NCBI GenBank assembly: GCA_044892525.1
Contig: CM097885.1
Location: forward strand, 24,306,001 to 24,370,000
DNA length: 64,000 nt
Direction: 5' to 3'
From: Schmidtea polychroa
Lineage: Eukaryota
Shown here: positions 19,201 through 64,000 of the stretch, in pieces
How the letters are laid out: the number at the start of each line of letters is the position of its first letter
Numbering within the stretch: position 1 is the first letter of the stretch
Made by a program: the position numbers and the translations under genes
The notes under the pieces: generated by a model
The model's database searches: none
What the model was told of the DNA's origin: nothing
The model's input: only the letters and a program-made list of their open reading frames with translations

Positions 19201-22200
19201 ACGCTCCAGAAGTGTCTTTAGAACATCCTAACATTATGGATTGGAGTAAACAAAACATTATCGCAGTAGCTTTAGGATCTGCTGTTTATTTGTGGGATGC
19301 AATTGCAATTGAAGTTGAAGAAATTATGAATTATGGTTCAGCGAGTCCGTTGAGTATTAGCTGTGTTAAATGGTTTCATGGCACGCAATATAAATCTGAT
19401 CACATTCTAGCCCTTGGTAGTACTGACGGTTCTATAATATTATGGGATTCCAAAAGGAAAACAAAAATACGAAAGATGTATTCTTCTGATCGCTACCATC
19501 GATCTGAAGTGATATCTCTTGCTATCAAAAACAATATCTTGTCAATAGGTAGATCTTGTGGTAAATTGGAGCATTATGATATTAGGCAGAACTCTAATCA
19601 TGTTCCAGATTGGAATAATAATCAGGTTTGGTTATTTTAGTAATATAATACTTCTTAAATGATTTTAATTATAAATATATATATATATTAATGAAAGCTC
19701 TGATGAAATTCATGTTAAATAAATAAAAATATTGATCTATAATAAATATAATTTTAATGATTTCAATTTCTACTCAAATTCAATTATAATTAAAACATTG
19801 ATTTGATAATATTAAAATGCAAAAATTTCGGTATTTATGTTTGAAAAATTCAATTTTCTTTATTGATAAAATTCCAGCGGGAAATTTGATTAAAACTTGA
19901 TTAAAAAAATTATTTATATTCTTCTGTGCGATTTACCGTTGATTTCGGGTTCAGTGAGTTTATAAATAGCAGCATACAATTCAAGTGCAATTTATATAGA
20001 TTCACCTTGCATCAACATTTTAAATTTTATTCTATCCCGTTGTGTTATAGCTATAGACAGAGAGTACTGATATTGATGTAAGTAGCTATAATACATTCCT
20101 GAGAATTTGTGACTGGATTTAAGATCCGTGGAATTATTGTTTATATCTGAAGTTAAACTTGACTGGCTATCTTCAAAACTTTCTTTCACAGAGGATAAAA
20201 TAATCAATCAGCAAACAAGGGAAAACGAAATTAATGTATCAATTATCCGCCAACAAAAGTTAATTGTGATTTGAAAATTTGAAACACGTGTAGAAAGACC
20301 AAGTGAACATAATACATTCAGTATATATTTAAATAATAAATTTTCCCCCGAAGGGTTGTTAACAGTAGAAACAAATGTTTTTTCAAAAGTATTCAGATAT
20401 ATCCGGATCTTGCATCTAAATGATTAATCATCTAAGAACATGTAACTGGATTCAAATCGGCAGTTTTAACATATAATAAAACATATTAACGTTTCTATTT
20501 TCCCTAACATCTTCAATTGTATGTTTTTTAAACATTTTTTATTAATGAATTTAGGTATTAAATTTTAATTGTTTTGATATTTTTTATTGGCATCAATCTC
20601 GATTGAGAAATATTGATTATTTTATTTTAAAATTGAAAATCAATAACTTTAAAAACATTATTTATTATTTTAAGTCATTTCTATTTGTCAAAAAGCTAGA
20701 GATCTTTTGAGCCATATTGCTAAGAACTAAGAATTTTGAAATCTGTAATTTCTAGAAAGTCCATATATTGTTTTGTAGGGGATTCAACTCTATTAAATTA
20801 TCGAGATTATTTAGACCACTGGAAAAATCGGTAATAATTCAAAATCCCTTTTCAGGGAATTTAATTTTGCAAACCCATAAATTTATTAAAATTATTTAAG
20901 CGCTGTTTTTAAATACTTGCCAAAATTCAAAATGTTTAAGAAACTGGAATTGAAAAAATTGATAATTAAAATTTGTAAAGTCTATGTGCAAATCAATCTG
21001 AAGTGCAATAGCATTAATTAATTAATGAAATTCATAATTTTCTTTATAAAACAATGAGTAACCATGAAAAAACTTCGGTTCTTTTAAAATGTTTTTCACT
21101 GATCATTTTCTTAAATTGGTAAAATTGACTAGTAATATTGAAGACCTTGAAAAAACATGTGTATGAATTGTGCAAGGTTTTTTGATAGTGTTACACTTCG
21201 CCAAAATAAATCTGAATGTCCTATCTTTGATAGTCGTATGAGGCATAAAGGAAAATATAATTCTACTATAAAAAATATTGTTGTAAATACTAGTATCCCA
21301 GGTTGAATGAAAGTGAATTTAAAATATGCTCCAAAAGGACTTCTAATACTTTCTGATGATCAAATTGGTCAATTTAAAGACTTTAAGGTTACTCCGAAGT
21401 TTTTAAGGTCGAATAAAGTAGACACTGGTGATTCGCAGTATGGTATTTTAAATGTATTTTTCGCAACGTCAGACCTGTCATATTTACTTCAATATAATCA
21501 GATATAGACAGAAAAAAATTTCCCATGCGATGGCCTTATCAGAAATTTTGTAGTTTGTTCAATGAACTTTGAATTTGATAGAATTAGATTTTCGAGCATC
21601 CACGAATACGGTTAATGTAAAAATTCGTTCACAATTTTATGCCATGAATTTAATGTGTTAATCTTTATTAATGGGAGATTTCTTATATTTGTCGTCTCTA
21701 AAATTTGTCTATACACTTCTAAGATATGTGACTAAATGAAGTTCTCAACTATTATTTCAAGCCGGTTAGTCAAAGAAAAACAGCGCCATGGACAGTCACT
21801 TGAGATCTATAAAAGATAGAGTAAATACTTTAACGAAATTAGATAGGTTATCAATAATTCGATTTTCAGAAAATATTGAAATAAAAATGTCATGTCGATT
21901 AAAATTAAAAAACATCAATTAATTATAGAATAGGATTATTTAACGTTTTTATTTTTAACGTTTTATGTTCAACTGAAAACATTTCCCAAATGTAGTTTTT
22001 AAAAGCAACATTTCAAATCAATAAAGTAAAAGAAATTATATAATCACATAATTTTTAAATTACATACATAATTAAGACATTATTTGAACATCACTTATAC
22101 GATATAATTTTTCCAAATTTTGTTGAAAAAAATGTCCAAAATAAATGACCCGCTATAAGCCGACCTATTAAAAATGAAATTCTCTTATTTGCTTTTCATC

Positions 22201-26522: not shown

Positions 26523-29310
26523 TCATTCCCGAATACCTTCTCCCTCGGCATTGACCAGTAGCTGGTCCAGGTTGAATACGAGATCCGTGTCCAAAACCCA
26601 GAGGAAATCTGTAGAGGAGGTTTGTAGGACAACTTCCGGTGGATTAATGTCCGTCACCAGGAAACTTAGGGCGGCTTCTTGTTTCGTCCGTTTCCGTTTA
26701 TTTCTCTCCGAGCGAGCACTCCTATGACTTTGGGATTGGTGGTGCACAGGTCCACCACAATCGGGTTGGTGATCAAGTTCGTCGATGGACCTGTTGGTGT
26801 ATCGACAGAATATGTTTTTTTGTTTTCACTTTTATTCCTGATTTTTATTTGATTTAATTTTCTGCATATGATTCCCGATGTAAATAATATTTTAAGCACT
26901 GTTTCTTCGTTTACGTCTCCTGCCACTAACCTCTCTGACTTCCTTTCCCATAAACTTTATCTTGTCCGTTATGTTTCTAATTAATGATGATTGTTTTGTC
27001 TCTGAAAAAATTCTAAAATTCATTGCTTTAACTAATTCTGTAATAATGGTTAAGTCCTTGCGATCGTCTACGTCTCTTGGACCTTCGTGGCTAGTACTGT
27101 TCGCGATTTCTCTTAGACGTTCCGCTGTTTTCCGATCGTTTGATTTCTCGATTATCTCTGAATTCCGACGTCTTCCTCTACCTCGTTTTGTAGTATCTGC
27201 ATTGTTGCTTGTTTCGCAATTTTCTCAATCGTCTCGTGTAAATTATCATATTGTCCAATGGTTGAAAAATTATTTCGTCCGCTCCTAGTGATTTCGCACT
27301 CCCTTTCGATGATATGTCCAACATTCGAAGCAATCTATCATAATCAGCCTCCTCGGTTACACTAAGCTCGACTGAGAATATTTGTGTTTCATTTTCAGGC
27401 CTCTCTTGTTTTTCAACTACTGCAGATATAATGTTATTTTCGATCACATTTACTCCATAATCTATCATATATTCCTCATTTATCATCTCGATTTCACTGA
27501 AGTATAGTTTTATTTTGTCATTCTCTCCTATTTTTTCAGGCCAATTACTTCTGGCCATTTGTCTCACTTTGCTCACATTTATACAAACGTGTATCCCCGT
27601 GTTGCACATCAGCGTCTTCGGGGGATCCTTGAACTCAAACGTTATTCTCAACGACTCATGTAGCTTCTGATTTTTTTTCACGAACTCACCATAACATTTT
27701 ATCATTTCTTTTAGTTCTATCTCTAACTTGAATACCCGCGCCATGTTTAGTCTCTTTACCATTTGCGGTATCAAATTTCTAAAGTATTCTAAATTAATTC
27801 CTTCGACTTGAATTTTGTCACTATTCTCAATGTTTCGTTATCATTGTAGGACCATTTCCCCAACGTCTCCTCAAATTCGTTTTTCAATTCCCTATGTATA
27901 TCTGCCTCTGCGAGAAGTTTCGCGTCTGCCTCTTGGGCTTTCTTCAGTTCCTCATCGTCGATGTCTACTTCGTCACCTCTAATTTTCGTTCAATAAGTCT
28001 CCCATATTGGAGTTTGAAATCTTTTAGTTCCTCCCGTAAATTGTTTATTTCATCGTTTGCTGCTACTAATTCAGCACCATTTATTTGTTTCACTTCGGGT
28101 TCGATTTTAAATCTTCCCCCCCTCCCTGGTGACTCATTTCGCGGCTTTGTACATACTTTAACTAAATGGCCATACCTCTGGCAATTAAAATTCACCTCCG
28201 ATCATTATTATACGGATTTATTCGACTTTGTCTATATGAATTTATTTTGTCTATTTCTCGGATTGTTCATATTGTCTCTATATGCAGAACGAATATTTAT
28301 ATTATTTTCAAAATGACTATTTCTAATGTTCTCAGCTCGATTATGGAGATGGTTTCTATTATATGCGAAACAATTGTCTCTATTATTTCTATTACAGTCA
28401 GAACGACTGTTAAAAGTATTTCGATTTCCGAAAATTCTGTTTATTGGACTTTCAAACCTTGCCCTGTTTTCACGTGATTGGATTCTACTAGTACTCGGAC
28501 TCGATTTTCGTCTATTTTTTACAAAATTCAGATATAGTTGCTTCATCTCCTCCCAAGGGATATTGTCATTTTTATTTTCCAACTCAGGCTTTTCCGCCTT
28601 TGGTTTTTTTATCTCAAGTGCATCTATCGCTAAACTAAATATATCCCTTTATATCGCTTCAATTCGCTTCGCTTTCTGATCTAGCTCATTTAGATTACCA
28701 TATTCTACCATAATCAAGGCTTTGTATAAATATCTTGGGATTCCGTTCCAAAATTGATCCTCAATAAACTTAAGTGTGTGCTCTCCCACACCAAATGCTT
28801 TCCTTGCTAACTCCGTTATAGTATACCCATATTCACCAACTGACTCTCTCGCAACTTGGTATCTAAATTTTTGCACATTATATTTTTGTAAGTCACTATC
28901 TATTACAATTTCCTCTCTTAAATTATGAACAAGGTTTACAAACGTATCTCCTCTACACTCTAAATTGTTATTAGACTGTAATGCATACCTCTTAAATATA
29001 ATGCTATTCGTTTTTTTAACTCATCTTGAGTCCAGCCGCAAGCTTCTGCGCATTGAACAATTTTGTTGACGAAGTTATCGAATCTTTCGGGTCTACTGAG
29101 ACTATTCCTTATTTAGTTTTTTTAAATGTGTTTGACTAATTAGGATCTGGTGTGTTTCTGATCAGATTAAATGATAGTTTTTTAAGAGGTGATTTTAAGA
29201 GGTGAATGAGGATTAGATAATGAAATTCGAGTGATTTTCTTATGTAAATTCGAGAAACCTTTGATTAAACCCCAGTGACTGATGAGAATTCTTAATGCTG
29301 GATATATGCC
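26523..29310 (-). mobile_element. Ty3/Gypsy-related gag element lacking recognisable pol (degenerate)
   Basis: Capsid motifs GWTQDELKKRIALYLRGYALQ and QVARESVGEYGYTITELARKAF...DQFWNGIP; N/R-rich linker; eroded zinc knuckle NCQRYGHLVKVC. It then continues into a long C-terminal region with no protease, RT or integrase motifs. Confidence 0.72.
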
Positions 29311-31096: not shown

Positions 31097-32941
31097 ATGA
31101 ATACTTCCAATAAAAAACGAATATCCGTGCGATTTGATGAAAATACTATTTCAAGGTGATTTAATTTAAAATATTTCTATTTAATTTTTTTTCAAATTCA
31201 GTCGCAGAGAGGAATCAAATAAAATACACAATGTGAAAACGAACAGGTAAGGATTTTTCATATTTTCATTATAATTATTTTTGTTTAGAAAATCTACTGA
31301 CATTTTGAGAAATCGCTTGAAAAGTGAATTTAAAAAAACTGTAAGAAATGCTAATAAAAATAATTACAAAGGCGACCGGTAAATTTTGTCTTTAAATTAT
31401 TAACTCTTACTTTTTAATAGGTTTTTTGCACATAGAGGTGCAATGAATTTTGACAAAGTTTACAATTCTCATATGTCTGATTTGGTATGTTTAGCTCACA
31501 CCGATGTAAATAGTTTAGATATAAGCGTGACAAAAAAACGTTCCAGAAAAATAAAATACAATTTAAATCAAAAGTCTCCCTCAAATCTTCAAAAGGTGGA
31601 TAATTTCATTAAAAGTGAAAATTCTAAATTTATGAAACTTAATAGAATTATTCCCACGGTAATATATATGATTTTTTATTTTCTAAAAATATCTTTCAAA
31701 GGTTCCAGAAAAAGTACTGGTGGTATTGAATGAGATTAGTGAAAATGAGGATAGTATATATGAGGATAGTGAAAACATAGTTGAACACATACAAACTTGT
31801 TGGCTTGAAAATGGTCTTTTAGCTATTGGACTTGATCATCGAGTATTTTTATGGAATGAGATATCGAATTGTTCCAGCAAAATACACCACTACACTAAAA
31901 GTTCTGGCAAACACATCTGTTCGTTAACTTGGGTTGGGTATGATGACACTAGAAATATCCCAAAGTTGGCAATAGGAAATAACGTTGGGGAATTGGAAAT
32001 AGTGGAAATAGATGAATTTTTTAAAGTTAGTGACACTTCAGTGGTATGTGAGAAAACTATCACACATAAAATCGTCATGAAAGACAATACTCTGATCTCG
32101 GCATTAGCATTTGCAAACAATATATTAACTATTGGATTGGAATCCGGCATTATCCAACATCATTCATTAGAATCGTTCTCCACTTCATTATCGAAAAACA
32201 AATATCATACAGAAGTCAGTGGAATATTACAAATTTTGATATTAATATTTGTAAAATAGGAAATTCATAAAATGGTCTGGTCGGTGGATAAAATCCATTT
32301 GGCAGTAATTTCGAAAGGTGGTATTTTAACCGTTTGGGATTCTAACTACCTCAATAAGAAACCGGTGATAAAATTGCACGATAAGAATGAAAGAATTAAT
32401 GATATTTCATGGAATCCCAAAAATTCGAAGCAATTAGTATATTGCAGTGGGAAAAACGATTGCCAACTGAAGATAATTGATGTAAAGTTAAAGCAATTTA
32501 TAAAATCAGTTAATACAGATCAAAGAGTAAATTTTATCAATTATAATATTGATTATAATTCAATATTATTTATTAATATAGTTGAGGTTTATATATTGGA
32601 GCAAGGTTGAGAATGAAATCATTTGCGTTGCCAAACCACAGATACCTAATCCTATCACAGATGAGTCTATTCATGAGGATTTGGATTATTCTAAAATTAT
32701 TCTTTTTAATCAGAAAACTCTTATGAAAATTTCAGAAATAAAATGTATGTCTAGATTTGAACATTTATATTGTGTTTTAAAAATATTTAATATAGGTAAC
32801 GAAAATCAGTACGGATTGACTAGCAATGGTAATGGAGATCAGGTTGTCACAGTTGGAAGACATGGTGAAATTAGAGTTTGGAAATTATTTCCTATCAAGA
32901 AATCACAACCAATGATGGATTTTTATTCGAATTTGAGATAA
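31097..32941 (+). CDS. CDC20: Divergent CDC20/Fizzy-family APC/C activator (WD40), paralog B, compact 8-exon gene
   Basis: GDR|FFAHRGAMNFD C-box variant split by an intron at the same site as in paralog A; PEKVLVVL; LLAIGLDHRVFLWN; WD40 repeats; VVTVGRHGEIRVWKLF; C-terminal ...FYSNLR*. Introns are ~40-55 nt. Confidence 0.82.
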
Positions 32942-37500: not shown

Positions 37501-40500
37501 TTTAGTTGAAAACCCATGTCCTAAACCAACCTCAATCAAACAAAGTCCTAGTATTATAAAATTATCACTTAATACAGATTTTACTTGTGTAAAAATAATA
37601 ATTTATGAATTTTTTTAAGTTATTAAAATATTATAAATTCAAATGAAAATATTACTTTTTTAATAATATCTATCGTTTCCTTTTCGTTGTTATATATTTG
37701 ATGCATTAACCGATTTCCAGGCCCAGAACTCAAATAGGCAGCCGTATTTTTCATTAGGATTCGTCCATTGTTTTTCTTTGAATTTCTTCGGCAAGCTTTC
37801 AAATAGCTTCTCACTTTGCTGCGATGCTTTGATTCTTCATACTCCGGAAATTGCCGGACAAGAATCGTATTAATTAAATTTAACAGTTCTTTTGGTTGGT
37901 GAGAAAATATAACATTTCTATCAAGTGCCTCATCAATGATTCTTCGAAGTAAAAGCTTGAAATAAAAAAAAACACTTAATAAAGGCTGTGATACAAATTT
38001 GTATATATATATATATATATATATATTGAATTTAGTGATATTGAAGGATATGGAGGATGTGAAATTACACTGATCATGGGACCTTACATAGGCCAGTAGT
38101 GGTAAAGCATAATTTCATAGCTGATTTCATTAATTTATTATAATTCTAATTGTCTTATTTTCAATAAAACCTTATTATAAATCAGTTTACCTTTAATAGA
38201 ATAAAAGTCTTTCCACTTTGATAAAAATACAGTAACTTAAATATTTGATATGTGAGTTTTTAACTATTAATATAATCTTTGGATATAATTGTCTTAATCA
38301 TAGGCGTAACTGGGTTTTCGACGCCCTTGGCTAATTTATCTTTGGCGCCCTTTCAATTATTAGAAAAAAATAATTTCTATAAAATAATAATTATAAAAAA
38401 CTTCCTGAATACTCTAACTTATCCATTTTTCTATAAAAAGGCATAATTGGGCTGTCTTTCATTTAATTTATTGTATTTACATTTTGAAGCATTCGGTCTC
38501 CTGAGGCCTTATATCCTTTCTATTATGATTTCAAAGTGATCTCATTCCTGTATTACATTTTTTTAAATTTTACATATTAAATTTTTACATATTTTATAAA
38601 CAAAAGGATAGATACTATTAATTGTTTATTGGAATAAAATGTGCCACACTTAAAAAATTATTGGTGTGAGGAAGGTGTTCAACGACAATATAATCTCGCT
38701 CCAGGAAAGACTGTTGAACATGCATTTTGGCTTGGTATTTTGAAGTTTGACATAATACTAATTGAACTTAGCGTTGGGTTCACTTCTTTCAGCTTGCCCA
38801 GTATTCTTTTATAACTTTCTTTGGATTTACCAAGAAGTAGGCATACTCGAGCGGTACAGCAGATTCATAAATCAGCGCGTGAATCGTAAAAACTCGCAAA
38901 CAAATAGTAGGCACAACTTTAAACATTCCATCTTTAAACCAGTACTTATGTTCTTGAAGAAGGTCAATATTCAATTTAGTCCCAAACATCAAAATCGCTG
39001 AGTACGAGATCGGTGACCGTAAGGATGGTGATTTAAGATAACGAATACATTTTTCTCAATCACTACCATAGTTTCCGCACTTTTCAGAATTGAGACGTTG
39101 TCTTGAAGGAGCTGTGAAGGAAGCCCATCAGACATTTTGTGATTACGCTTGCATGTATTCATGAGGTTGCTGTAGTAGGTTGAATTAATTTGTAAGTCAT
39201 TTTCAGTGAAATCCGTACATATTATGCCACTTTGATCCCAAAGATTTGTTGGAGTATTAATCAATAAAATCGATTAGTTTCTGACTGTTCGTCCCTTTTA
39301 TAAATCAAATAACTAAGACTCAAATCCAAAATATTTATTGATTATCAATTTAATTTAGAACTCACCAGTAATTTCAACTTCTCTTTCAGTAATTTATTCT
39401 GATTTAGCGTTATTGGAGACAGCACAATGGGTAGTCACCTTGTCTGGAACGTTAAACTGATTTAGAATTATAACAAAAAGTTTGTTTCTTTCATTTACTT
39501 CTACTTGATTAATTATTAGACTTGATTAAATAATTCCCTTAGTTCTTTTTATTCGACCGAATGACAATGTGCTTTTCAATCACTCTCTTTTTATACCCTA
39601 TCTTTGAAAACAATTTAATTATTGTTCATCCAGTATTCCTGAAATTCTGTCTAATTGCCTCCATAACAAGCAAATTGTTCAAAATATAAATATAAGCATT
39701 ACATAATAGTTTTCTTAAAAAAATATTTATTTGAAATTGTAATGTACATTTAATACATCGATGTAATGTACATCGAATAATGTATTTAATGAAAAAGGCT
39801 TAAATTATTACGTTATTGTTTTAAATAATAAATGTTGCTATCAAGGAATAATCACTTTATACTAAATGAAATATTAACACAATTAAATGCAAAGATGATA
39901 CTAATAGAGGATAAAACCTATATAGAGAAGACTTTTGGTTATCCTGACTTTATACAAATAGGATAAAATTAATATTTTGTTTTTTTTTACAATTTCAAAT
40001 AAATATTTTTTTAAGAAAACTATTGTAATACATAATATGTATTTATTAATATATTTATAGTTAATTTAAATTTTATATTAAATTTATAATATCATATATT
40101 AAATCTGCGTTTTTCAATCTTTACTTTCACTGTACCACCAGGTAAAATAAATTGAATGTTCGTGTAAAGCCGCAAAGCTAAACAAAAATTAACAGGCTAG
40201 CAATAAGTTTCATTGCAATTTCAGAAGGAGAGGATAAAAAATATTCGAAATATTGTAAAAGTTTTAAATTTTAAGATTTTCAATTTATAAATAAATCGAC
40301 ACCTGGCGTACCACCGGTTGAAAATTGCTGCATTAATTAGTCTTTTTATGATTGTTATATGTTGGCATCGGTCAGAATATGAAAACACATTATTTAATTC
40401 TCCAAGTTTTAGTTTGCAGTTTCCTTTAATCAAAGGCGTCTTTAGAAATTTGTCGCCCCTGTGCTATAAACTATAATGCGCCCCTAAAAAAACAATTTTT

Positions 40501-46865: not shown

Positions 46866-49800
46866 CTAATTGCTGTTCTTATCATCCTCTGGACGCTTCT
46901 TCCGATTGAAGTTCTGTTCAACAGACGCAAATCGATCGTTTGGAAAATTGAAACTCTCCTCAACCAATCTGTTTCTCACGTGATCTGAGACTAGTTCCTG
47001 GAAGGAATTGGTGAGACTCGATGGGAACTGCTGGGTATCGAGCGAATCATTGGAAACGACACCGGCCGACCGAATAGCATGATCGATGCAATCGTGCATC
47101 AGCTCGGGCACTGGTTGAATCGATCGATGTCGTTGATTGAGAATTATTTTCCTTCGTTTAGGAGGCATTCCCGATACGTATGCGTCACTATATGGGATTC
47201 CTATTGTTTGCTGGTCAACTGGGACATTCGAGTCACGAGATACTATATCTATCCAATCCGGTGGAAGGACTGATTGCCAAGAGTTGCCATTTGGTGTGTG
47301 ACTCGCAGCATCCTGTTGGTAAGAACAGACATCCATAAATTCCGCTACGACACCATCGAGAGGATTGGTAACATCTGTTATTGAGTTAGACTTGATAATG
47401 CTACCAGCCAATGAATCAACCATCTAAAATCAGTTATCCTTATAATATTTCAAAAGAATATGATAACAAAAAATCAATTTACCGCTTCCATTACAAATAT
47501 GGGGAAAAGAATTAATTATTATTAATATTATTTATCAATTTCATAATGCAATCAATTACAAAAATAATATTAATATATAAATCGATTCCTGAATTATTAT
47601 TAAATAGATAAATTAGTTCATTTATTTTCATTGTGAGTATATATGAGTATACGTAACATAGATGGTAGATAGTAGGTAAGCTATTATGTAGTTCATTTTC
47701 GGGCCCATAAATTCTAATATAATAAATAATCTCACATCTTCTAGCGAATCAACATTCGTCATTATCTGATCGCTATTATCGGCAATTTGACTATTGTTTC
47801 CAGGAGCTTTCAATGAGCTTTCACCCGATTCCAAATTCAAGAACACAACATAGGCAGACAAAACCGTTTCTCTAAGCTCGGAAAGCTGCTCGGGTCGTCT
47901 AAACAATCGGGAATTCCCATTCTCAAAAAGCCAATCTAATCCAAACGTATTTCGACTCTGATTGATAAATTGTGATAGATAATCATTTGAATCGTCTGGA
48001 AATATATTCAATAATGAATGATCGGATCTGATGCATAGATCAAATGATATTGAATACCGCAATGGCGGGAGAAGCAAATCATTTAATTATACATGATAAA
48101 TATTCATTAATTTAATGAAAATTTATTGAATGAGATAAATTATTATTATTATTTTTAATATTATTTTTTTATTTATATTTTATTATTATTTTATAATTAA
48201 AATTAATATTATTTAATTTTAACTTTAATTTTATTTTTTTAATTTCATTAATTTTACCATTATTTTTATTATTATTTATCATTATATTATAATTAATATT
48301 AAAATTATTTATTATTATTTTGTAATATTAATTTTACTATTATTTTTTTCATTTATATTTTAATAATATTTATTAATATTAATTTTACTATTGTGTTTTT
48401 TATTATTTTTTATTTATCATTATTTTATAATTAACATTAATATTATTTCATTTATTATTTATAAATATTAATTATACAATTATTATTTTATTTATTTCAT
48501 TAATTTTAGTATTATTTTTATTATTTTATTATTTTTTATTTATATTTTAATAATATTAATTTTACAATTATTATTATTTATCATTATTTTATAATTAATA
48601 TTATTTATTATTATTTTATTTTTTATTTATTAATTATTATTGTTATTTATTGATATTAATTTTACCTTTATTTTTATTATTATTTTACTTATACTTTATT
48701 ATTATTGAATAAATTATAATAATGAAATTAAAAATAATTATTATAATATAATAATAAATGCTCACCAGTTGATGACATGAGCGAATCAATAAACGCTCGG
48801 ACCATATATTGCCGTAGCTCGTCATTATCATTGCAAATTATATCTAATAATGCCAAAGTCTCGTTGTGATGGGAAAACATGCTGTTCATTAGTAACTGAC
48901 CGAAACCAATATCAGTTGGGCTCCTAAGGATCATGTCGACAACAACTCGTGCGTGGTGCTACAACAACAATCAATTAGACCATATAATATAATATAAGCA
49001 GTACTCGGTTGAGATTATTTATCGTTTGGTGTATATCGATATTTTCATTGAAATTCCCTCTAGCATCCTCGCTCAGACCATCGACTTGTTCATCGGTTCT
49101 CAATCTGTCAAATATCGTCATGTAGACCCGGTTGAAGGATTCCAAATCCATGACAACATTATCCAGCATCCGCTCTCTCGATCCGTTACATTGTAACTGG
49201 TGTGCCATCAGCAAATCCTGCAATGGAATCCTCAACACATTCAATGGGTGGTAGACTCCATGAATGATTTGAGTGATATCGATCATGGTCAACCGGTTGA
49301 CAACCAACTGAATGATCTGATTGGTAATATTGTTCACGGTGTCATTGTCGTGGTTACTGAATATATCTATTCGGTGATAAACAGATGTTGATATTTGGTC
49401 TGAATGGTTATTGTCAATATTACCTGGAAACAACTGACCGAGAGGCATGTCAAGATTGATTGTCCCAGTACTGGTAAACGATTGTAACAATCTTGTTAGG
49501 TCGTTTTGAGGAAGCGAAGGAATAATAATAGGAGGATTGGTAGCAGCAGATCGTGACGAAGTTTGAGAGGAGGCTAAATAGGGAGAAAATAAATGAAATT
49601 AACTCGATAAATTATAAAAAAGGAGTGAAATTGGGGAGAGTCAAATTTCTTTGGATAAATGGCAAAATCATATTTATACCAGTCGGATTTACAGTAATAT
49701 CTCATTCTCGTTATCAACCGATTGGCTGCAGTTATTACCATTTATATTAAATTGGGGTAGTGGAGCATAGGATATAAGGTAACATTGGGCCAGTGGAGCA

Positions 49801-52500
49801 TATGATATAAGGTAACATTGGGCCAGTGGAGCATATGATATAAGGTAACTTTGGGCCTGTGGAGCATATGATATAAGGTAACATTGGGCCAGTGGAGCAT
49901 ATGATATAAGGTAACATTGGGCTAGTGGAGCATATGATATAAGATAACATTGGGGTAGTGGAGCATATGATATAAGGTAACATTGGACAAGTAGCGTGCA
50001 CGAAATCGGGAATTTTTCTCAATCAGATTATCAGAGACTAAATACCTGTCATAAAACCTTATTAATTTTCCAATGGCAAATGCAAAAATAGGCCTCTGAG
50101 AGCAGGCGTAGCAGGTATGCAATGCGACAAAATATGCTCATTAGAACCGGTTAGGTTTGAATAATTATATGTAAAAGTCAATTTTGCAAGGCCATATTGG
50201 TAAATGAAAAGGTCGGACAGAATATACTTGCTGTCCCGTAACCAGGTCGCCCTATTCCCACCAAATAAAACAATATGAATCATTCTAAGTCAGAGTTGCT
50301 AATAGAATATATGAAATCACATTGTATTATCCGCATGAAATGTATATATGGGAATATACATAAACCACATGGGAAAATCAATAAATATTTCCAATCAGCA
50401 TTAATTCCATGGATATGAAATTTATTTACTGCAATATAATATAAAAAGTCACCGTTATCATTGGTGGTGCTAGGAGTGGCTTGCATCGTGTCTCCGGATG
50501 ATGAGAATATTGAATTGATCAATCCGCCAATGAATGTGCGGACCGGATCGCCTTCCCTGGCATCGGTCACATTAGTGGTCGTGTTAGCAGTTGTAGATGG
50601 TGCCGTGGTGGTGGTAGTCACCACTGGTGACTCAGTGGGGCGCGGGCGACTCCTAGAGCTATCTCTAAACTATATCAATCGATAATTAAATGAATCCATT
50701 ATCAATTGTCTCACCCGAATGCCACCAAATGTCGATATAACCGCTCCAGTCCTGAGATTCGAAGGATTCTGGAAATGTCTCGATTGGCACCTGACATATG
50801 GATCGACATTCTCAATCAATGGCGATCCATTTCTGATAGTCGTGCGAGGATTTGCGCCATTGATCCGTGCCGCCCCACTCGATTGGCCAGGCATAGAGTT
50901 AGTTGCGGTTGAATGGACAAATGAGTCATGCAATGTTGACCGAAACAGATTCTCCATGGTAGCCTGTCCAGGGAATTGTGGCGGTACCGCTTGACGACGA
51001 ATTCGAGCAGTTCCGGCCGGTGTTTCGGTGGTCGGGGTTGGCTGACTCGGCACGGTGCTCGTGGTGACTGGGTCTGAAGCCGGTTGGGATGCACGCCTAC
51101 AACAGAATCAATAATATGTAACATGCCAGCAAGGTTACCCACTCAGTAGTTCTCGTTGCAAACACATGCGTCTGACCACTCGTAACTGGCATCTGAATAG
51201 TCGAATCGACATCCAATCTCACTTGAAACAATTGGGCTGGCATTTCCGAGAAAACGTACAGATATCGACTGCGATCATTACTGTCAAGATTTGTGTCAGA
51301 TGTATTATTAGCGGTTGAAGCATTGCCCTCGGTCGATCCTTCTGATTGAGGTAACCCGCTTTCGCCGAATGCTCCAGTTAATGGAGTGATGTTTTCATCG
51401 ATTGAGGTGCTTGTAGCAGCTTCATTTGTTGGTGTGGCGGTCTCGTTGGCATTTCTATGAACTGGCATTACTCTCGTGTTTGCATTGTATTGGAATTCCA
51501 CCAAATAATCACTCATTATGTGCAACATGTGAGAGAAAAGATGTATATATCGACTAGCTGAATCATGCATCCGTTGCATTTCCCGATCATAATTTGCTAT
51601 ACTGTCCGGCAGATTTTGTCGTCGCAATACATTTTCCCATAATTCCAATTGCGGTTCTGCATCTCGCCACATATCTCGGACGCTATGTACCATGTCGGCT
51701 AAATTATGGATTGGCAAAGGCTGAGCCGACACTTCAGTTATTCTTTCTTCATTTACCCCTAAATCATATGCATTTGCTTGATATAGTCTCTCCCGATCTG
51801 GGCGAGGCGCCGGTAAACTTGGATCTCTAAGATTATCAAGCAATTCTCTGGCTTGTGACATTAGTCTGTGGATATAATTCTGACGCAATCTTGCAAGACT
51901 TAATCTATTAGAACTTGGCATATTTACAGTAATATCTACTCTATTGCCTTCATTATTAACAGAAACCCTGATAAATAACTTAATAATAATAAAAAAATAC
52001 AATCAACAGTTACCCCATAGGATTACTTAATTCGGCAATGTTACCAAAAACATCACTCAGAATATTTCTAATTTGGTCTCGATTAATATCAGAATTTTCT
52101 TCTCTTTCAGTAGTAGTTGTATCTGGAGCTGGTCTATTTTGATTTGGCGGAGGTCTTGTTACCAAATGCATCACATTTCCAGCGACATCTATTTCAATCA
52201 AAAAGTGACATTTAAATCAAAATTTACTATATGAGGACAAAAGGTTATCGTCTTGCAACACGCGACCCTGGAACAACAATCTCTGTCTCTCAACAGCAAT
52301 ATCCTGTAGGTATTTTTAATTAAAATAAAAATTTCTTAAAAACTACCATTTTATGATGAATAATGGCTTTAAATTGCAGAACATTAATCTAAAAATATAT
52401 TACTTAGATAGTACTTTAAACTAATTTTTACATTATCTGGAACAGAAAAATCATGATTCCTTCCATCCAGAGTCTTCACTATCACATTTATCGTACTCAT
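46866..52500 (-). CDS. BAG6: BAG6/Scythe (large proline-rich protein BAT3) homolog, multi-exon
   Basis: N-terminal UBL domain (MSTINVIVKTLDGRNHDFSV..., IAVERQRLLFQGRVLQDD..., MHLVTRPPP); HLFSHMLHIMSD; DPYVRCQSRHF; C-terminal VLPPDWIDIVSRD...PYSDAYVSGMPPKRRK and DRFASVEQNF. Confidence 0.92.
49751..49988. repeat. 33-bp minisatellite (~7 copies) in a BAG6 intron
   Basis: Unit AACATTGGGCCAGTGGAGCATATGATATAAGGT. Confidence 0.95.
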
Positions 52501-55452: not shown

Positions 55453-55650
55453 CGACCTAAAGGAAAGTCAGACACATGCCTTCTATCGGCAGTCCGCGAA
55501 CCCGTACGAGTTCCTGAAAATAGTGTATAATGGTATGCTCACTTTTTGCTGGTACTCTCCCACTTGATACGTTACCAATGTTCATCACTCAACGGGTATT
55601 AAGCGGCAACACACCATCGTACTCTGGGTTACGCTGGAAACGGCGCGACG
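55453..55650 (+). ncRNA. Candidate structured RNA module, copy E
   Basis: Homologous to the reverse complement of 5160-5365. Stems TGCC/GGCA, AACCC/GGGTT, GTATA/TATGC and CTTGATAC/GTATTAAG. Confidence 0.6.
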
Positions 55651-56143
55651 AGGTAAAATGCATGCTTACCGGTAACCCACTATCAGTCTTAATTTGTTAT
55701 ATTATTTATTATTCTTTTATTTTTGAGTTGGTAGATTTTCAAATGCGTTATTTTCTATTAACTATTTTGGTGATTGCAACTTCTTGTGTTTATCAATTTT
55801 ATTTTACGAGTTTTATATATTCTCAATTTGTTGTGTACTTTACATTGTATTATTTGATGTATAATTCAACTTGATGCGGTTTTCATGCTATGTGTTTTTG
55901 ACTCATTAAAACAAGCTCTCAATTTTTGATTCTAAACAAACATTATCATCGATGGTAAATATGACCCCAGTGTTGTTCAGAAAGCGAAATATTAAACGTG
56001 TTTCAACAACATCAATCTTATTCAACAATATCATCTATCTCCTTAGGTTTCATTATTGTAATTTAAATAATGTATGATAAGCAAGAAGTGAAAGGTTACT
56101 GCTGAGGGTTGCATAGGAATTTACGGTTTTGGTTATGGTCCGA

Positions 56144-56747
56144 AGTAGTATATAGTGAGGACTCCAGGACACTTTCAAGGTCATCCCAATGTCCAGATCA
56201 AATATAGGTAAATAGAATCATTTTTATTTATTTTTTTTTAAAATTTATTTTATTACTTCTATTTAATTTTTTTTTAATTTATTAATTAATTATTTTATTA
56301 TGTTTTTTGTTTTAATTAATTACTTTAGTTAATTTTCAATTTATTACATTTAATTAATTAATTATTTATTAATATTTTATTTTAATTACTTACGTTATTT
56401 AATTAATTTTTTTTTAATTTAATTTTTTTTTATCTATTATTATTATTATTTTTTTTTATTGTTATTATTTTACATTTACATTTAATATATTCTAAGAAGA
56501 GTGTAAATTGTAACAATAATATTTCAATTTGAATAAAATTTTAATTAGTAATAATCATAAAATAAAGCTGTGTTAATTTAAAATAAAATGGGCATTAATT
56601 TTTCAAAACAAAGCAAAGTTTTTCATGATAAATAATAATTCTTACTTAAAACTAATTATCTAAATTAATTGGACAAATGAATTATTAAATGATAAAACAT
56701 ATTTTAATTAACGAAGTCAAATAATTCACAATATATATTTTATTATT
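56144..56747 (+). repeat. Left terminal inverted repeat
   Basis: Reverse complement of 62522-63125 with only scattered mismatches. Confidence 0.95.
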
Positions 56748-56804
56748 AAACCTTTGCATAGATCTCTTCAAGACCTTTCGAATGATGTGAATAAAATATA
56801 ATAA

Positions 56805-56976
56805 AATTTTAAAATACCGCAACGTAATATAAATTTTGAAATACCGCAACGTAATATAAAATTTAAAATACCGCAACGTAATATATTTAAAAAAATTTAA
56901 AAAAAATTAAAAAAAAACCCTCCCCTCCCCCGGGGGTATGACGTCATATGTCTTTGTGACGTCATCGATGACGTCA
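56805..56976. promoter_or_regulatory. Subterminal motif cluster: 3x AAATACCGCAACGTAATATA and 3x CRE palindrome TGACGTCA
   Basis: TGACGTCA at 56939, 56957 and 56969. ACCGCAACGTAAT repeats at ~56815, 56843 and 56870, with a variant at ~58336. Confidence 0.6.
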
Positions 56977-57089
56977 TATGTCTTTGTTCCCGGCTCCACA
57001 CATTACCCTACTCTACTGTTTTTTCTCTCTCTTTTTCACCCATTTGTTTCTTTTCTCTTTGTCCGATTGGGATTTAAGTGTAACCATGT

Positions 57090-58110
57090 ATAGGCAGAAT
57101 TTAATTCTCTACAAAATGGCTCAATTACAATTTTAGTTTGTCACTTTGTGTGTAATACACACATGTTTTTACGATAAATTTGTATTTTTCGCGCGGTTAA
57201 CGTAATTTTCTCGGATTTTTATTCATATATTATATAGGCAAAATTTAATTTTCTATAAAATAGCTTGATTAAAAATTATGTCTCGTATGTTGTGTGTAAT
57301 ACACACATGTTTTGACGATACATTTGTATTTTTCTTACAGTTAACGTAATTTTCTTAAGATTTTATTCATATAATATATAGATAAAATTTAATTTTCTAT
57401 AAAATAGATTGATTAGAAATTATGTATCTTGTTTTGTGAGTAATACACACATGTTTTTACGATAAATTTGTATTTACTATACGTTAACGTAATTTCCTTG
57501 GATATTTATTCATTTATTATAGAGATAAAATTTAATTTTCTATAAAATGGATTGATCTAGAGTTTAAAATGTTGTATTATTTTATTACTTTGTTGCAATA
57601 TTTTTATAATCTTATAACAATTTGCTTAAATATTTTACACCTGTTGAAATATTTCCGAAATATGTTATTACTTTGTTGTAATTTACTGAAAGACTTCACA
57701 ATTTATTACAATATTCTTTTTAATTTGTTGTCCGTCTTCGAAATAATATATTGATTTGTCTCAATTAACATCATTATTTTATTACTTTGTTGCAATATTT
57801 TCTAATTTTGTTACAATTTGCTTAAATATTTTACAACTGTTGAAAATTTATCTGAAAAACGTTATTACTGTGTTGCAATTTGATGAAAAATGATATTACT
57901 TTGTGGATTCATCACATATTTTTATAATCTTGTTACAATTTGTTTAAATATTTTATAACTTTGTTGGGATTTGATAAAATCATTTATTAATTTTTATCAT
58001 TTGCTTAAATATTTTACATCAGTTGAAATATTTCCGAAATGTCATTACTTGGTTGTAATATATATTTTTTCATAATGTTACAATTTGATTAAATATTTCA
58101 GAAAAAATAA

Positions 58111-58180
<70 letters not shown>
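57090..58180. repeat. Internal tandem repeats of the element (~145-bp x3, degenerate longer units, (AAT)n)
   Basis: GTAATACACACATGTTTT at ~57152, 57296 and 57440; CAATTTGCTTAAATATTTTACA recurring across 57615-58100; AAT microsatellite at ~58106-58180. Confidence 0.88.
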
Positions 58181-58181
<1 letters not shown>

Positions 58182-58352
58182 GAAATTATGAATATGTTGA
58201 AAACTATGAAAATGTTAAAAATAATCATGAAATTGAGGCAAAAATTATAAAAATGTTCCTGAAATTATTATGAAAATGTTAAATAAATAAACTTTAGCGT
58301 CAAAATGTGTTTTAAAATATATTGAAGTTTTAAAATACTGCAACGTAATGCA

Positions 58353-58490
58353 TTTATTTTTCCTACCCCTTCCTTGATTTTGATTGGTCAGAATATATTT
58401 ATTTTTCCTACCCCTTCCTTGATTTTGATTGGTCAGAATTTAATCATGTGTAATATATAAGCAGTAACTTTTCAAATGTTTGTCATTTAA
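58353..58490 (+). promoter_or_regulatory. Pol II promoter of polB: tandem CCAAT-box units, TATA box, Inr-like TCATT
   Basis: Duplicated ~45-bp unit CCTACCCCTTCCTTGATTTTGATTGGTCAGAAT; TATATAA at ~58454; TCATTT ~28 nt downstream. Confidence 0.65.
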
Positions 58491-58511
58491 ACTTTTAATT
58501 TAACTTATATA

Positions 58512-61500
58512 AGTGAATAATATTTTTATTCTCTATCTAATATTAATGATTATTTTCTTTTAGTGAACGGATGCAGTTTATATAAATTTTGTATTGCCGA
58601 AAGTCATGAAGATGTGGAGAATTGTAAATCAGTTACATCATCATATTTCAAGATAAATGACTCTACCTTATCGGGTTACATATGTCCGGAATGTCTCATT
58701 ATATCACCAGGTAGGTGGTTAATGTTTGTACGACAACACGGACACCATCTTAGAAGATTCGAAGAAACGAAGAGCAGGATGATCACTAAAAGTAATACTC
58801 TTTCTACTATTAACAATTATTAATTTTTTATAGTACAATCGAAAATGAATACATCATACGATCCTAAGCCGATTAAAGAATATATTACAAGTTATGTTAT
58901 TTAAGTTGTTTAATATTAATTATAAATATAGTTAGACAAAACTCTGGCACCACAAAACGAAAGTCAATATTTTACGGAAATGGAGACTCTAACATACAAT
59001 TGTGTCCACGTCGGGAGTCTGACTTAAATGGTTCTCGTGTTGAATTGACAAGCGATGTATCTGCAATTAATTCTCCTGACATTTTTGTTCCAGATTGTCT
59101 CATCAAAGAAATAGAAGATCATATTCAACGAATGGGGACAGTAAAAATCCAATTTGGACTTTGTGCAGAGTTTATCAAAGAGGATGGTGAAATTAAAAAA
59201 TGGTGTTTGTCAAATAAAGCAATTACAATGTCATCTTCATTTATTAATGATGGAATTGAAAAATTAAAAGAAAAGTTGGAGAAATACACTCAACAAAGTA
59301 GTGGGTAGAGAATTCATAAAATATTAGAAGTTACTATGATTTTAACTAAATTATCAGACATAATACATGTATCTGGTAAGATTATTTACATTATTATATA
59401 TATAAATCAAGATATTTATTTAGGTTCAAGTTACATTAAAACGCCAAATTACCTGAAAAACTGTCTGGCTTTAGTTAATGTACACAACAATGATCAATTC
59501 TGCTTTTTATATGGCATACTGGCTGTATTACATTATGATGACATAAAACACCACAGAGAAAGAGTAATGAAATATAATTTAAGTGGTAATATATATATAT
59601 TTATATTTATATATTTATATTTATACATATATTATTTTATTTAGAGTTAAAATGGAAATCAGATTGGTTTCCAATGAAGTTGGTTAACATTTGCCAATTT
59701 GAAGCAATGAATCCTAATCTAGCGATCAATGTTCTCAAATATAATAAGGATCCAATTAAACAGAATAGTGAAAATATTTTCAAGAATCCGTTCGTTGACT
59801 TGGCATATAGAAGTACTTCGACGGGATCTCAGATATATCTCCTATTGATTGAAGAAGGTAATATTTCTTTTAATCATTAAAAATATTAACTAAATTTTAG
59901 AATTAAATTATCATTATTTGGCTGTAACCAATCTCGATCGACTGCTCAATTACAGAGATAGAGTAGAAGGAGTCAGAATCCAATCACATTGGTGTCATAC
60001 GTGTCTTCACGGGTTTCGAAAACGTCCTGCTTTTGAAAGACATATAGGTCTTTGTAGGAAGAATGTGGAGCGGACGACTCTATACTCAATGCCAGAGAAT
60101 AAATATATCGAATTTAAAGACTGGAGTAAAACTATAAAACAGCAGTTTGTTGTGTACGCGGACTTTGAATCAATATTACCTCTAGACGACAAACACTTCC
60201 AAAAACATGAACCGATTGCATCTGAATTTGTGCTTCTTCATCAAGGTCATCCGATTCGAAATGAAACATTTGTTGGGAAAAATTGTATCATTCAGTTTAT
60301 ACACGCATTGGATGATATAGCTAAAGACATAGTTTATCCGTGGTATAAAATTAATGGATCGAATGAAATGATGGAACTCACTTGGGAACAGCAGGAAGAA
60401 TTTACGAACCAAACTCATTGCTACCTTTGTAAAAAGATTATCAATATACCTGTTCGGGATCATGATCATTTTACCGGTCAATATCTCGGAGCAGCATGTC
60501 AAGATTGTAATTTGGCTAGAAGAATTAATCCGTCTTTACCTGTTGTATTTCACAATCTTCGTGGATATGACATTCATCATATATTAAAATATGCAATTGG
60601 AAAATTCCCAGATTGGAATTTAAATGTTATTCCACAATCAACAGAAAAGTTTCTCACACTTACAGCAACATCGAAAGGCAGAAGAATTAGATTCATTGAT
60701 TCTTTACAATTTTTAAATAGCAGCTTGGCAAATTTATCAAAAAATTTACCATGTCTTCCACTGACCTCAGATGTTTTCGAATCACAGATGATGACTTGTA
60801 AAACCATTTTTCCTTATGATATGGCTACATCAATGGATGTTTTACAGTCAATAACAGAATTACCTGCAATTTGGGAGGGAGTTAGTCAAGAAGATTATAT
60901 ACATGCAAATCGAATCTGGCAACAATACAACTGTGAGACATTGCTAGATTACATGCTAATATATCTCAAGTTGGATGTTTTTCTGTTGGCCGATGTTTTT
61001 GAAGCCTTCAGAGAAAAAACATTTGACGAAGATGGACTTGAGGCTCTATCGTTTGTTTCCATACCCGGATTAAGTTGGGCATCAGCTATTAAACAGTTAC
61101 CTGAACCGATAGAACTTATTCAAGATCCAGAGCTTTACCGTTTATTTGAAGCTGGTATTCGTGGTGGAATGACATTTATCAACAAACATCATGTTGAAGC
61201 TGATGTATCAACACAAATGTCATACCTAGATGTTAATAATTTATATGGATGGGCTCTGTCGCAAAAACTTCCTGTTGGTGAATTTAGATGGATAAATGAT
61301 CAGACTGAAATGAATGGTATTATTAAAAGATGTGCAAATGGGGATGAGTTTGATGGAGATCGTGGATATGTTTTGGAGGTTGATATCGTCATTCCTGATA
61401 GTATACAGGATAAACTAGATAATTTACCTATAGCTCCTGAGCTTTGTTATCCGCCTGGAAGTAAAGTTGAAAAGCTGTTGTTAACTCATGAGCCTAAGAA

Positions 61501-62505
61501 AAACTATGTAGTTAATGGTAGAGTTTTGACAGAGTGGTTGAGTTACGGCGCAAAAGTCACAAAAGTTAATCGTGCTGTAGAATTCAAGCAAGTGGCTATT
61601 TTCAAAAGATATATTGATTACAATACCAAAATGAGAGCAGCTAGTACGGATTCGTTTCAGCGAGATTATTATAAGTTAAAGAACAACAGTTTATACGGTA
61701 AAACTGTGGAAAACTTGAAGAAACGTATAAATTTGAGATTATGCAACAAAAGCAAAAGATTGATAACTTATTGTAGTCATCCTATGTTTCGTCGTAGCAT
61801 CAAGATTGCGGATGATCTCATTGCTGTTATACTCAATAAATAAATTGTGTGTTTAGATAGACCAATGTATATTGGACAAACCGTACTTGATTTATCCAAA
61901 CTTCGCATGTACCAATTTCAATATAAAGAGCTACAGAGTTATAGAGAAGAATTCATTGTCAAATTAATATCGTAGCCGGTGACACAGATTCCTTCTTTTT
62001 AGAGTGTAAAAATGTAGATTTACGCTTACAACTATATCCAAAAATGATTGAAGATGGGCTCCTAGATACTTCAAATTATCCAGTGACCGATCCGTTGTTC
62101 TCTGATAAAATTTGTTCTGTAATCGGGAAAGTTAAGGATGAGAATAAAGGAAATCAATATAAAGAATGGGTGTTTCTTCGACCCAAGTGCTACTCACTCC
62201 AAGGCGATAAAAACACTCTAAAAGCCAAAGGAATAAGACTAACAAACTCTAATCTTACACATGAAGCCTATAAAAAAGTGTATACTGATGGTGGAACAGT
62301 GAGCATCCCACAAAAAAGAATAGGAAGTGTCAATCATCAGTTGTATACTTTCATGACAGAAAGACGAGCTCTCCAATGTTTGGACGATAAAAGGTATTGG
62401 TACAATTGTAATGAAAGCTATGCCTACGGTCACTATAAGATTCGTCAAATGCATATTGCAACTGCTATGTCTAGAAATGAATGCAAATCGAAACAAGCAC
62501 TTTAA
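58512..62505 (+). pseudogene. polB: Protein-primed family B DNA polymerase (Polinton/adintovirus type), 6 introns, ~1236 aa when repaired
   Basis: ExoI VVYADFES, ExoII FHNLRGYD, ExoIII YLKLDV; Pol A YLDVNNLYG, Pol B KLKNNSLYGKT, Pol C AGDTDS; LRPKCYS, KAKGI, LDDKR. EndoVII-like insert CYLC..RDHDHFTGQYLGAACQDCN. Lesions: TAG at 59306-59308 (SSG[W]), TAA at 61841-61843 and a 1-nt frameshift near 61953. Confidence 0.93.
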
Positions 62506-62521
62506 CAATTAAATTTATGTG

Positions 62522-63125
62522 AATAATAAAATATATATTGTGAATTATTTGACTTCGTTAATTAAAATATGTTTTATCATTTAATAATTCATTTGTCCAA
62601 TTAATTTAGATAATTAGTTTTAAGTAAGAATTATTATTTATCATGAAAAACTTTGCTTTGTTTTGAAAAATTAATGCCCATTTTATTTTAAATTAACACA
62701 GCTTTATTTTATGATTATTACTAATTAAAATTTTATTCAAATTGAAATATTATTGTTACAATTTACACTCTTGTTAGAATATATTAAATGTAAATGTAAA
62801 ATAATAACAATAAAAATAAATAATAATAATAGTAGATAAAAAAAATTAAATTAAAAAAAAATTAATTAAATAACGTAAGTAATTAAAATAAAATATTAAT
62901 AAATAATTAATTAATTAAATGTAATAAATTGAAAATTAACTAAAGTAATTAATTAAAACAAAAAACATAATAAAATAATTAATTAATAAATTAAAAAAAA
63001 AATTAAATAGAAGTAATAAAATAAATTTAAAAAAAAAATAAATAAAAATGATTCTATTGACCTATATTTGATCTGGACATTGGGATGACCTTGAAAGTGT
63101 CCTGGAGTCCTCACTATATACTACT
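62522..63125 (-). repeat. Right terminal inverted repeat
   Basis: Begins 17 nt after the polB stop and ends in CTACT, followed by the TSD GTCCGA. Confidence 0.95.
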
Positions 63126-63577
63126 GTCCGATTGTCGTATTTATGATCGCTGGTAGGTATGATGATCTGGAAGTGAATGAAATATGCTTAATAGAAGGTT
63201 CTAGTTTATTCACTGGAAATTTAATTCCATGGGCCGGTAATACATATTACCGGTAATTTTCAGGGTCCTATGTTGTTGATTTTAATATCCCTGTTGTGCG
63301 TGATGAACTACATGGCCTAATTATATACGGATTAAGCCTCATCTGTCTTAAGTCTGTTTATCATACCTCTGACTCCCTGACTCAGTACCAGGCTGTCGAA
63401 GATTAAGATTTGATCAAACGATTTAATACAAACTCTTACATTGTAATTTATATTACTGTTAATTATATTACAAGGGCAAAAAGAAAAAGGCGACAATCAA
63501 AAGGATGAAATTCAAAAGTACGTATTAGTAAAACAAACAATAAAAGAGCGAATATAATTAATATTATAATTAATATT

Positions 63578-64000
63578 AGTAGTAGGATGTGTCACCTCCA
63601 GGACACTATAAAATAAGTTGTATAAAACAAGTTAAGTAGTATAAAATAAGTATAAATTAAGTTAAAATTTAAGTAGGTCAAGTTAAAATTAAGTAGATCA
63701 AGTTAAAATTATGTAGGTCACGATTATATAGTTTAAAAATATGTAGGTCAAGTTAAAATTAAGTAGATCACGACTATATAATTTAAAATATGTAGGTCAA
63801 GTTAAAAGTAAGTAGATCACGACTATATAGTTTTTAAAATATATATAGGTCAAGTTACTTTAAACATGTGTCACCTCCAGGACACACACATATATATATA
63901 TATATATAAGTAGGTCAAGTTAAAATTAAGTAGATCAAATTAAAATTATGTAGGTCACGACTATATAGGTATTAAAATATTTAGGTCAAGTTACTTTAAA
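63578..64000 (+). mobile_element. Left terminus of a second, related Polinton-type element (runs off the window)
   Basis: AGTAGTA followed by CTCCAGGACACT at offset +18, the same spacing as at 56144. Then ~19-20-bp tandem repeats (AAGTAGGTCAAGTTAAAATT) and a second TGTGTCACCTCCAGGACAC at ~63867. Confidence 0.65.

Follow-up and report, generated by a model that had tools for sequence, protein, structure and literature searches.

A second Maverick/Polinton-type end next to a polymerase-only element in Schmidtea polychroa shares a compact terminal signal with it

The standard features of Mavericks (Polintons) are (AGT)2 ends, a 6-bp target site duplication (TSD) and terminal inverted repeats (TIRs) of 46-1,447 bp (PMC8097293). 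The end motif is described as (AGT)2 or (AG)3, with (AGT)2 the commonest end of vertebrate Mavericks, the end repeats are expected to permit jumping-back initiation, and 96% of the vertebrate loci are degraded (PMC8097293). The terminal-protein domain is part of the protein-primed polymerase (pPolB), and it is described as unclear how the terminal protein is removed ahead of integration (PMC11161782). Insertion is attributed to a retroviral-like integrase (PMC6431247) and, in the literature, leaves a 6-bp TSD. Incomplete elements have been described as well. In C. elegans, pPolB1 with a TIR and no integrase occurs at 10 loci, and several Polinton insertions have been found at one locus (10.1101/2024.01.15.575659); polB-less Polintons are apparently still mobile (10.1101/2025.02.07.637071). 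Segmentation is known from viruses with a pPolB: in bipartite bidnaviruses, the segment with polB additionally carries genes for a superfamily 3 helicase and a parvovirus-type capsid (PMC4061559), and Vesanto virus has up to twelve segments of 3.3-5.8 kb with similar termini (PMC8363768).

Within the 64,000-nucleotide stretch of DNA analysed here (the window), we found an element of the Maverick type with both of its ends, E1, and what is probably the beginning of a second one, E2, which runs off the window. Like Mavericks/Polintons (Alpha-PolB adintoviruses), E1 has (AGT)2//(ACT)2 ends, a 6-bp TSD, a 604-bp TIR and a PF03175 PolB, and E2 has the same end as E1. Unlike them, E1 measures 7 kb rather than 13-25 kb, its polB is broken and shows intron-like gaps, and we found in it no integrase, ATPase, protease or capsid gene, the set that an autonomous Maverick carries inside its TIRs. 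The partial Polintons of C. elegans (pPolB1 plus TIR) and Pieris mannii (polB-less) resemble this locus in having Polinton ends around an incomplete gene set, clustered insertions and a mobility that is presumably provided in trans. The locus differs from them in that E1 retains both TIRs and a perfect TSD, and in that E1 and E2 have in common a 30-bp signal and AGGTCA-type sites only, not a whole TIR.

With Bidnaviridae (Bombyx mori bidensovirus) and the Drosophila Vesanto virus, the locus shares small linear units, similar inverted termini and, on some units, a Polinton-derived PolB. However, those are ssDNA viruses, whereas E1 is integrated with a 6-bp TSD and is known here from the integrated copy alone. 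The analogy with bidnaviruses is loose, because their polB segment also encodes helicase and capsid, while polB is the sole ORF set of E1, which has no superfamily 3 helicase or parvovirus-type capsid gene, and because E1 has a 6-bp TSD, the hallmark of a Maverick integrase. Of what a segmented virus would show, matching termini together with complementary genes, E1 and E2 have the termini (30 bp), and E2 can be read for 423 non-coding bases. The adenovirus ITR origin consists of a trinucleotide-repeat end for jumping back, a conserved block at a fixed position and then NFI/Oct-1 sites. The E1 and E2 ends likewise have a trinucleotide-repeat end, a fixed-position block and then host-factor-type sites, but these sites are closer to monomeric nuclear-receptor elements than to NFI/Oct-1 sites, and adenoviruses are not known to integrate.

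Terminal signature at the E1 and E2 ends

A preliminary description of this DNA had reported AGTAGTA at 63578 with CTCCAGGACACT at +18, about 450 bp past the polB element. Both statements were borne out by our analysis. When up to 2 mismatches were allowed, AGTAGTA-N11-CTCCAGGACACT had three matches in the 64-kb window, at 56144 (+), 63125 (-) and 63578 (+), compared to a mean of 0.00 in 100 shuffles, and the distance from E1 to E2 was measured at 452 bases. The first two matches are the two ends of one element, E1. With its 19 specified bases, the pattern is expected ~1e-7 times in the window; the chance of the inner 12-mer, CTCCAGGACACT, at the fixed offset is ~9e-9, and within the window the core of this 12-mer is confined to the E1 ends and E2. 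Alignment of the E1 and E2 ends revealed that 22 of the first 30 bases are identical, as are 5 of the next 15, and that the common end reads AGTAGTA-N4-GTG-N4-CTCCAGGACACT, with GTG at positions 12-14, a match absent from the preliminary description. E2 begins at 63578 with AGTAGT, a Maverick end of the (AGT)2/(AG)3 type. AGTAGT alone occurs at 29 sites in the window, and as it is a generic Maverick end, specificity lies only in the inner block with its 12-mer. These data show that 63578 is a real second Maverick-type end, which has a compact cis signal in common with a polymerase-only derivative.

E1 extends over 7 kb (56144-63125) between its 604-bp TIRs and is flanked by the TSD GTCCGA (Table 1); the chance of two identical 6-mers at these flanks is ~6e-4. 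The visible part of E2 comprises the 423 bases from 63578 to the window end (64000) and is non-coding. E1 and E2 are the only two elements with such ends in the 64 kb. In the spacer between them (63132-63577), we found no ORF >54 aa, no Pfam or Rfam match and no match to the Maverick genes of 106 related loci, and an Rfam search of E2 together with the spacer returned no match. The six bases ahead of E2, AATATT, are uninformative as a TSD from this one flank, because AATATT is a common palindromic word (166 sites in the window) and the copy at 63572-63577 lies inside a 12-bp tandem duplication.

Table 1. Coordinates of E1, E2 and the sequence between them in the window
Feature	Position	Strand	Evidence or remarks
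E1 left TSD, GTCCGA	56138..56143	+	
E1 left TIR, 604 bp, starting with the common signature	56144..56747	+	98.8% (598 identities, 5 mismatches, 2 gaps)
E1 non-coding left arm: 27-bp x3.3 repeat, three TGACGTCA sites, 144-bp x3.3 repeat, (AAT)25	56748..58350	.	
Likely polB promoter: copy of the 27-bp-repeat core, doubled 45-bp unit with TTTGATTGGT, TATA-like word	58333..58465	+	
E1 polB, its only gene (protein-primed DNA polymerase B)	58560..62505	+	PF03175, E 1.1e-32; weak endonuclease VII match
E1 right TIR, starting 16 bases past the end of the last polB ORF	62522..63125	-	
E1 right TSD, GTCCGA	63126..63131	+	
Spacer between E1 and E2, presumed host DNA	63132..63577	.	ORF, Pfam, Rfam and Maverick-gene searches
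Candidate 6-bp target site of E2, AATATT	63572..63577	+	Low-complexity context, left flank only
E2 terminus: (AGT)2 Maverick end and block GTG-N4-CTCCAGGACACT common with E1	63578..63607	+	Pattern match, end alignment
E2 subterminal array of 20/50-bp units: 8 WAWNTAGGTCA (RORE-like) and 4 TAGATCA	63659..64000	+	Runs off the window
Internal second copy of the E2 terminal block (positions 10-29)	63866..63885	+	20-bp copy, starts a ~135-bp higher-order repeat

The signature had 0 matches in viral contigs, the first 29 bases of E2 had 0 matches in metagenome contigs, and a looser form of the signature had 0 matches in the 106 fetched loci, so that no further unit bearing it was found in these three sets.

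The E1 polymerase gene, its relatives and the non-coding arm

By its PF03175 match, the gene of E1 encodes a protein-primed PolB, although this copy is broken. Searches by tblastn with 18 full-length relatives located pieces of polB from ~58560 to 62450, interrupted by stop codons at 59306 and 61841 and by a shift of frame near 61950, and the 5' part has short gaps that we read as introns. The proteins P0131 and P0156 are 97% and 95% identical to E1 polB. P0156 is one continuous protein across the stretch that is broken in E1, and E1 is therefore a decayed representative of a family that has further members. Among the metagenome relatives, intron-like splits of polB were also seen in L004, L007 and L012, and polB is one ORF in L001, L002, L005 and L010. 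On the basis of PF03175 and an OTU motif, which we take to be diagnostic for the assignment, E1 polB would belong to the class related to bidnavirus PolB. The relationship of this class to bidnavirus PolB is described in PMC8502044, in light of which an assignment of E1 polB to a Beta class was dropped.

The metagenome scan extended over 37 of 64 collection parts; out of 472 confirmed stretches, the best 80 were retained, and these make up 77 loci. Among these, polB was 45-61% identical to that of E1 at 18 loci and ≤39% identical at the others. A prokaryote genome collection yielded 27 polB loci, all at ≤39% identity; in viral contigs, one scan found no polB and another found two distant loci.

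A second gene lies beside polB in 5 of the 18 close relatives among the best 80 of 472 (L017, L018, L023, L035 and L028). In L017, L018 and L023, it is a small gene arranged tail to tail with polB, in two sequence types that are 84% alike. A profile of this small-protein family matched P0253 (E 1e-4), which in turn matched Pfam Adeno_PX (E 2.9e-4, under the Pfam cut-off); the Pfam scan of four direct members of the family gave no pX match. The Atlas annotation of P0121 as Adeno_PX scored no higher than 0.75 (20% of members) and is a lead. Through the two-step link by way of P0253, the small gene may be regarded as a pX-like virion-core gene. It occupies 1888-2187 in L017, 1899-2315 in L018 and 1883-2230 in L023, apparently with an intron, and stands there apart from an ATPase and an integrase, the genes on either side of it in more distant relatives. 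A collection scan with a pX-like alignment gave no match. With an extended profile, pX-like homologues were found between a packaging ATPase and an rve integrase on the polB contigs L082, L029 and L072. Both ATPase and rve integrase were present in 3 of 5 loci scanned, at 31-35% polB identity. Relatives that carry the complete gene set, likewise at 31-35%, fall outside E1's clade.

In L035, a dual-specificity phosphatase (PF00782) and a 153-aa ORF (2284-3516) are tail to tail with polB, with a 20-bp repeat array between, and in L028 an unnamed ORF lies beside polB. These five loci with a second gene, together with L054 and E1, were placed in one 24-row clade (SH-aLRT 92) of a quick tree. The tree had 88 rows taken from 230 core-covering proteins (every second one at ≥44% and every twelfth of the others), and its rows also included named picks, 13 loci and E1. 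Integrase, ATPase and major capsid genes were found in 0 of the 18 close loci among the best 80 of 472, on contigs of only 1.1-4.8 kb, and the flanks of L003 (~1.1 kb upstream) and L054 (~1.6 kb downstream) held no recognisable gene. Contigs of 13.5-32 kb, a length that would suffice for whole Mavericks, are the source of ten close polB proteins.

Two candidate element ends among the relatives did not hold up. L012 and L018 share an inverted AT-rich match that was considered as TIRs around polB and is better read as common promoter sequence before divergent genes, and a 10/12 motif match in L054 was dropped as chance, being the sole one in 55 kb and in the wrong orientation for a right end. 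A GC-richer stretch of 126 bp upstream of polB is 87% identical between L002 (296-417) and L003 (1-126), and no terminal motif was found in it.

The left arm of E1 (~1.8 kb) has no ORF >72 aa, no gene remnant and no evident deletion junction. None of 2,697 ORFs from the 106 related loci, rve and ATPase genes included, matched it by tblastn, and searches for pX-like and Rfam matches in the arm were also negative. We read TGACGTCA as a presumed CRE site and ATTGG as a presumed CCAAT site. The 17-bp word AAATAC[CT]GCAACGTAAT, which is the core of the 27-bp repeat, occurs three times near the left TIR (56812-56882) and once at 58333-58349, just ahead of the polB promoter, and has no other occurrence in the window. 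Together with the lack of a gene remnant or evident deletion junction, this placement of the repeat core before the promoter might be the pattern of a natural small unit, which counts against our preferred reading below. The stretch 58333-58465 itself is likely the polB promoter, as judged from its motifs. The doubled TTTGATTGGT unit ahead of the TATA-like word (58352-58439) is common to L004 (1-80, same strand) and is also present upstream of polB in L012 (170-360, opposite strand). The doubled TTTGATTGGT unit and TATA-like word are likely a lineage-wide design of the polB promoter.

Nuclear-receptor-type sites in E2 and E1

Past the signature, E2 was initially thought to diverge completely from E1 into a different subterminal repeat array. 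The different array is there, in units of 20/50 bp at 63659-64000 that include 12 TAG[AG]TCA units, but the divergence is not complete, as AGGTCA-type sites are common to the E2 array and the E1 TIR. In the latter, AGGTCA/AGATCA half-sites are found at positions 35 and 52, and at position 63 in the right TIR only. For the ROR/Rev-erb-type element, we took WAWNTAGGTCA to be the exact consensus. Nine sites of this form were counted in the window, compared to 1.07 expected; eight are within the 423 bases of E2 (0.036 expected; a number reached in 0 of 2000 simulations) and the ninth is in the right TIR of E1. The E2 array thus has, at eight sites, the AGGTCA preceded by A/T-rich sequence that defines such elements. 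AGGTCA after an A/T-rich run is described as the monomer site of ROR-type nuclear receptors (PMC7246805).

The same consensus was found in one of the metagenome relatives: the 420 bases upstream of polB in L012 contain 3 WAWNTAGGTCA sites versus 0.0065 expected (0 of 2000 simulations), and the remaining 7 of the 8 polB-upstream regions examined have at most one AGGTCA each. The AGGTCA-type sites are a second, independent link of E2 to E1's lineage. Judged by its motifs, the nuclear-receptor-type array suggests that the timing of the lineage's activity could depend on a host hormone or clock factor. Our literature search, with most subscription papers (including the original Polinton descriptions) outside it, returned no description of this 12-mer, nor of Maverick ends with nuclear-receptor sites, which for the latter is weak evidence of novelty.

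Readings of the second end and other features of the window

We estimate at roughly 65% the probability that the sequence from 63578 onward is the left end of a second Maverick/Polinton-lineage element, full-length or gene-poor, that is mobilised by shared machinery. Most likely, E1 and E2 both depend on one set of copying and insertion enzymes that full-length elements provide, rather than being pieces of a segmented virus. Machinery shared in the ordinary way, in an animal genome rich in Mavericks, is the most likely situation. Since E2 keeps the terminal signals of E1, the two would be copied and inserted by the same enzymes. The (AGT)2 ends would allow jumping-back, protein-primed initiation, the block at +11 to +29 may be a docking site for the pPolB/terminal-protein complex or for the integrase, and the AGGTCA array probably recruits a monomeric nuclear receptor of the host and would act as an enhancer or as an auxiliary origin. 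Defective or gene-poor elements with these signals could then be served in trans. E1 itself has no integrase yet has a perfect TSD, and so it would either have lost its other genes after insertion or have been inserted in trans, by the integrase of full-length elements of the lineage.

Under shared machinery, E1 and E2 would be independent clients that landed close together and not obligate partners. The counter-points are that two apparently rare elements 452 bases apart suit co-insertion better than independence, and that integrase, ATPase and major capsid genes were found at none of the 18 close loci among the best 80 of 472, on their short contigs. The preliminary description had proposed, among its possibilities, a different element using the same terminal origin/integration signal, possibly a satellite, and this part of it is sustained by the position-specific 12-mer and by the common AGGTCA-type sites. 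Two otherwise unrelated ends that keep only AGTAGTA-N4-GTG-N4-CTCCAGGACACT would mark, as a natural footprint, the minimal cis signal needed for Maverick replication or integration.

A first alternative, which we consider unlikely, is that E2 is the remnant of a solo Maverick terminus, lacking an intact element behind it, whose first 135-280 bp have multiplied as head-to-tail copies. In contrast to E1, E2 holds its terminal block a second time, at 63866, and the last 17 bases of the window (from 63984) are the same 17 bases that stand ahead of that copy (from 63848), so that a third copy is predicted just past 64000 and the E2 end is itself a higher-order repeat. The second repeat unit aligns to the first with 119 identities, 8 mismatches and 43 gaps, and the window contains several other tandem arrays. 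However, a perfect (AGT)2 end marks the very point at which the E2 array starts. E1, with both of its ends and a TSD, contains subterminal repeat arrays as well, and repeats near an end therefore do not imply that the element behind them has been lost.

A still less probable alternative is the one that headed the preliminary description, a multipartite Maverick, with E1 as its polymerase segment and E2 as a sister segment for integrase, capsid or packaging functions. The segments would have the 30-bp origin and the host nuclear-receptor sites in common, would be replicated together and would integrate next to each other. This reading agrees with E1 being a clean 7-kb unit with TIRs, a TSD and polB as its sole gene, with the 452-base distance to E2 and with a polB of the class related to that of bidnaviruses (PMC8502044). 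It also agrees with the limitation of the E1/E2 resemblance to short signals, comparable to the terminal similarity of Vesanto virus segments (PMC8363768), and with the count of 0 of 18 close loci, among the best 80 of 472 and on short contigs, that carry integrase, ATPase or capsid genes. However, E1 polB is broken, and polB stands beside other genes in 5 of those 18 relatives. The contigs of 13.5-32 kb with ten close polB proteins could hold whole Mavericks; the signature is absent from the 106 loci and the viral contigs, as is the E2 29-mer from the metagenome contigs; and no integrated segmented Polinton was described in the papers that our literature search covered, most subscription papers being outside it. 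Ends that are common to autonomous and defective elements are the ordinary explanation for what the two ends share. The proposed division of labour between segments, the headline of the preliminary description, finds no positive support, given the broken polB of E1 and the close relatives with other genes beside polB. If E2 were nevertheless a complementary segment, it would make this the first known integrated multipartite Maverick, as judged from our literature search, and a model for the origin of bidnavirus-like segmentation, with a Maverick in a segmented state so far known from bidna-like ssDNA viruses.

A chance resemblance, with 63578 not an element end, could appeal to the frequency of AGTAGT alone, but is excluded by the expectation for the 19 specified bases, by the shuffles and by the confinement of the 12-mer core to the E1 ends and E2.

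Elsewhere in the window, a 205-bp dispersed repeat is present in two inverted copies (5133-5337 and 55480-55683, 71% identity), one of them ~460 bases to the left of E1. Tandem arrays and a 204-bp near-perfect palindrome are located at 1513-2446, 7646-8464, 49748-49986, 48135-48745 and 10578-10781; the arrays have periods of ~140 bp, 85/146 bp and 33 bp, and one is AT-rich and resembles the interior of the E1 TIR. A remnant at 3940-4293 is similar (E ~2e-6) to BIR-RING (IAP) proteins that are encoded beside polB in L029 and L049. Other mobile sequences include piggyBac-like transposase ORFs at 13029-14720 (PF13843 in 13833-14717) and, on the minus strand, a fragment resembling a reverse transcriptase and gag-like ORFs (18100-18726 and 27178-28648), which were read by eye from translations. 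Two separate pieces of Cdc20/Fizzy-like WD40 genes (PF24807) lie on the plus strand at 19173-19640 and 31687-32259, and host exons of BAG6-like (weak PF12057) and NOL4-like (PF23079) genes lie on the minus strand at 46866-52002 and 37623-38114.
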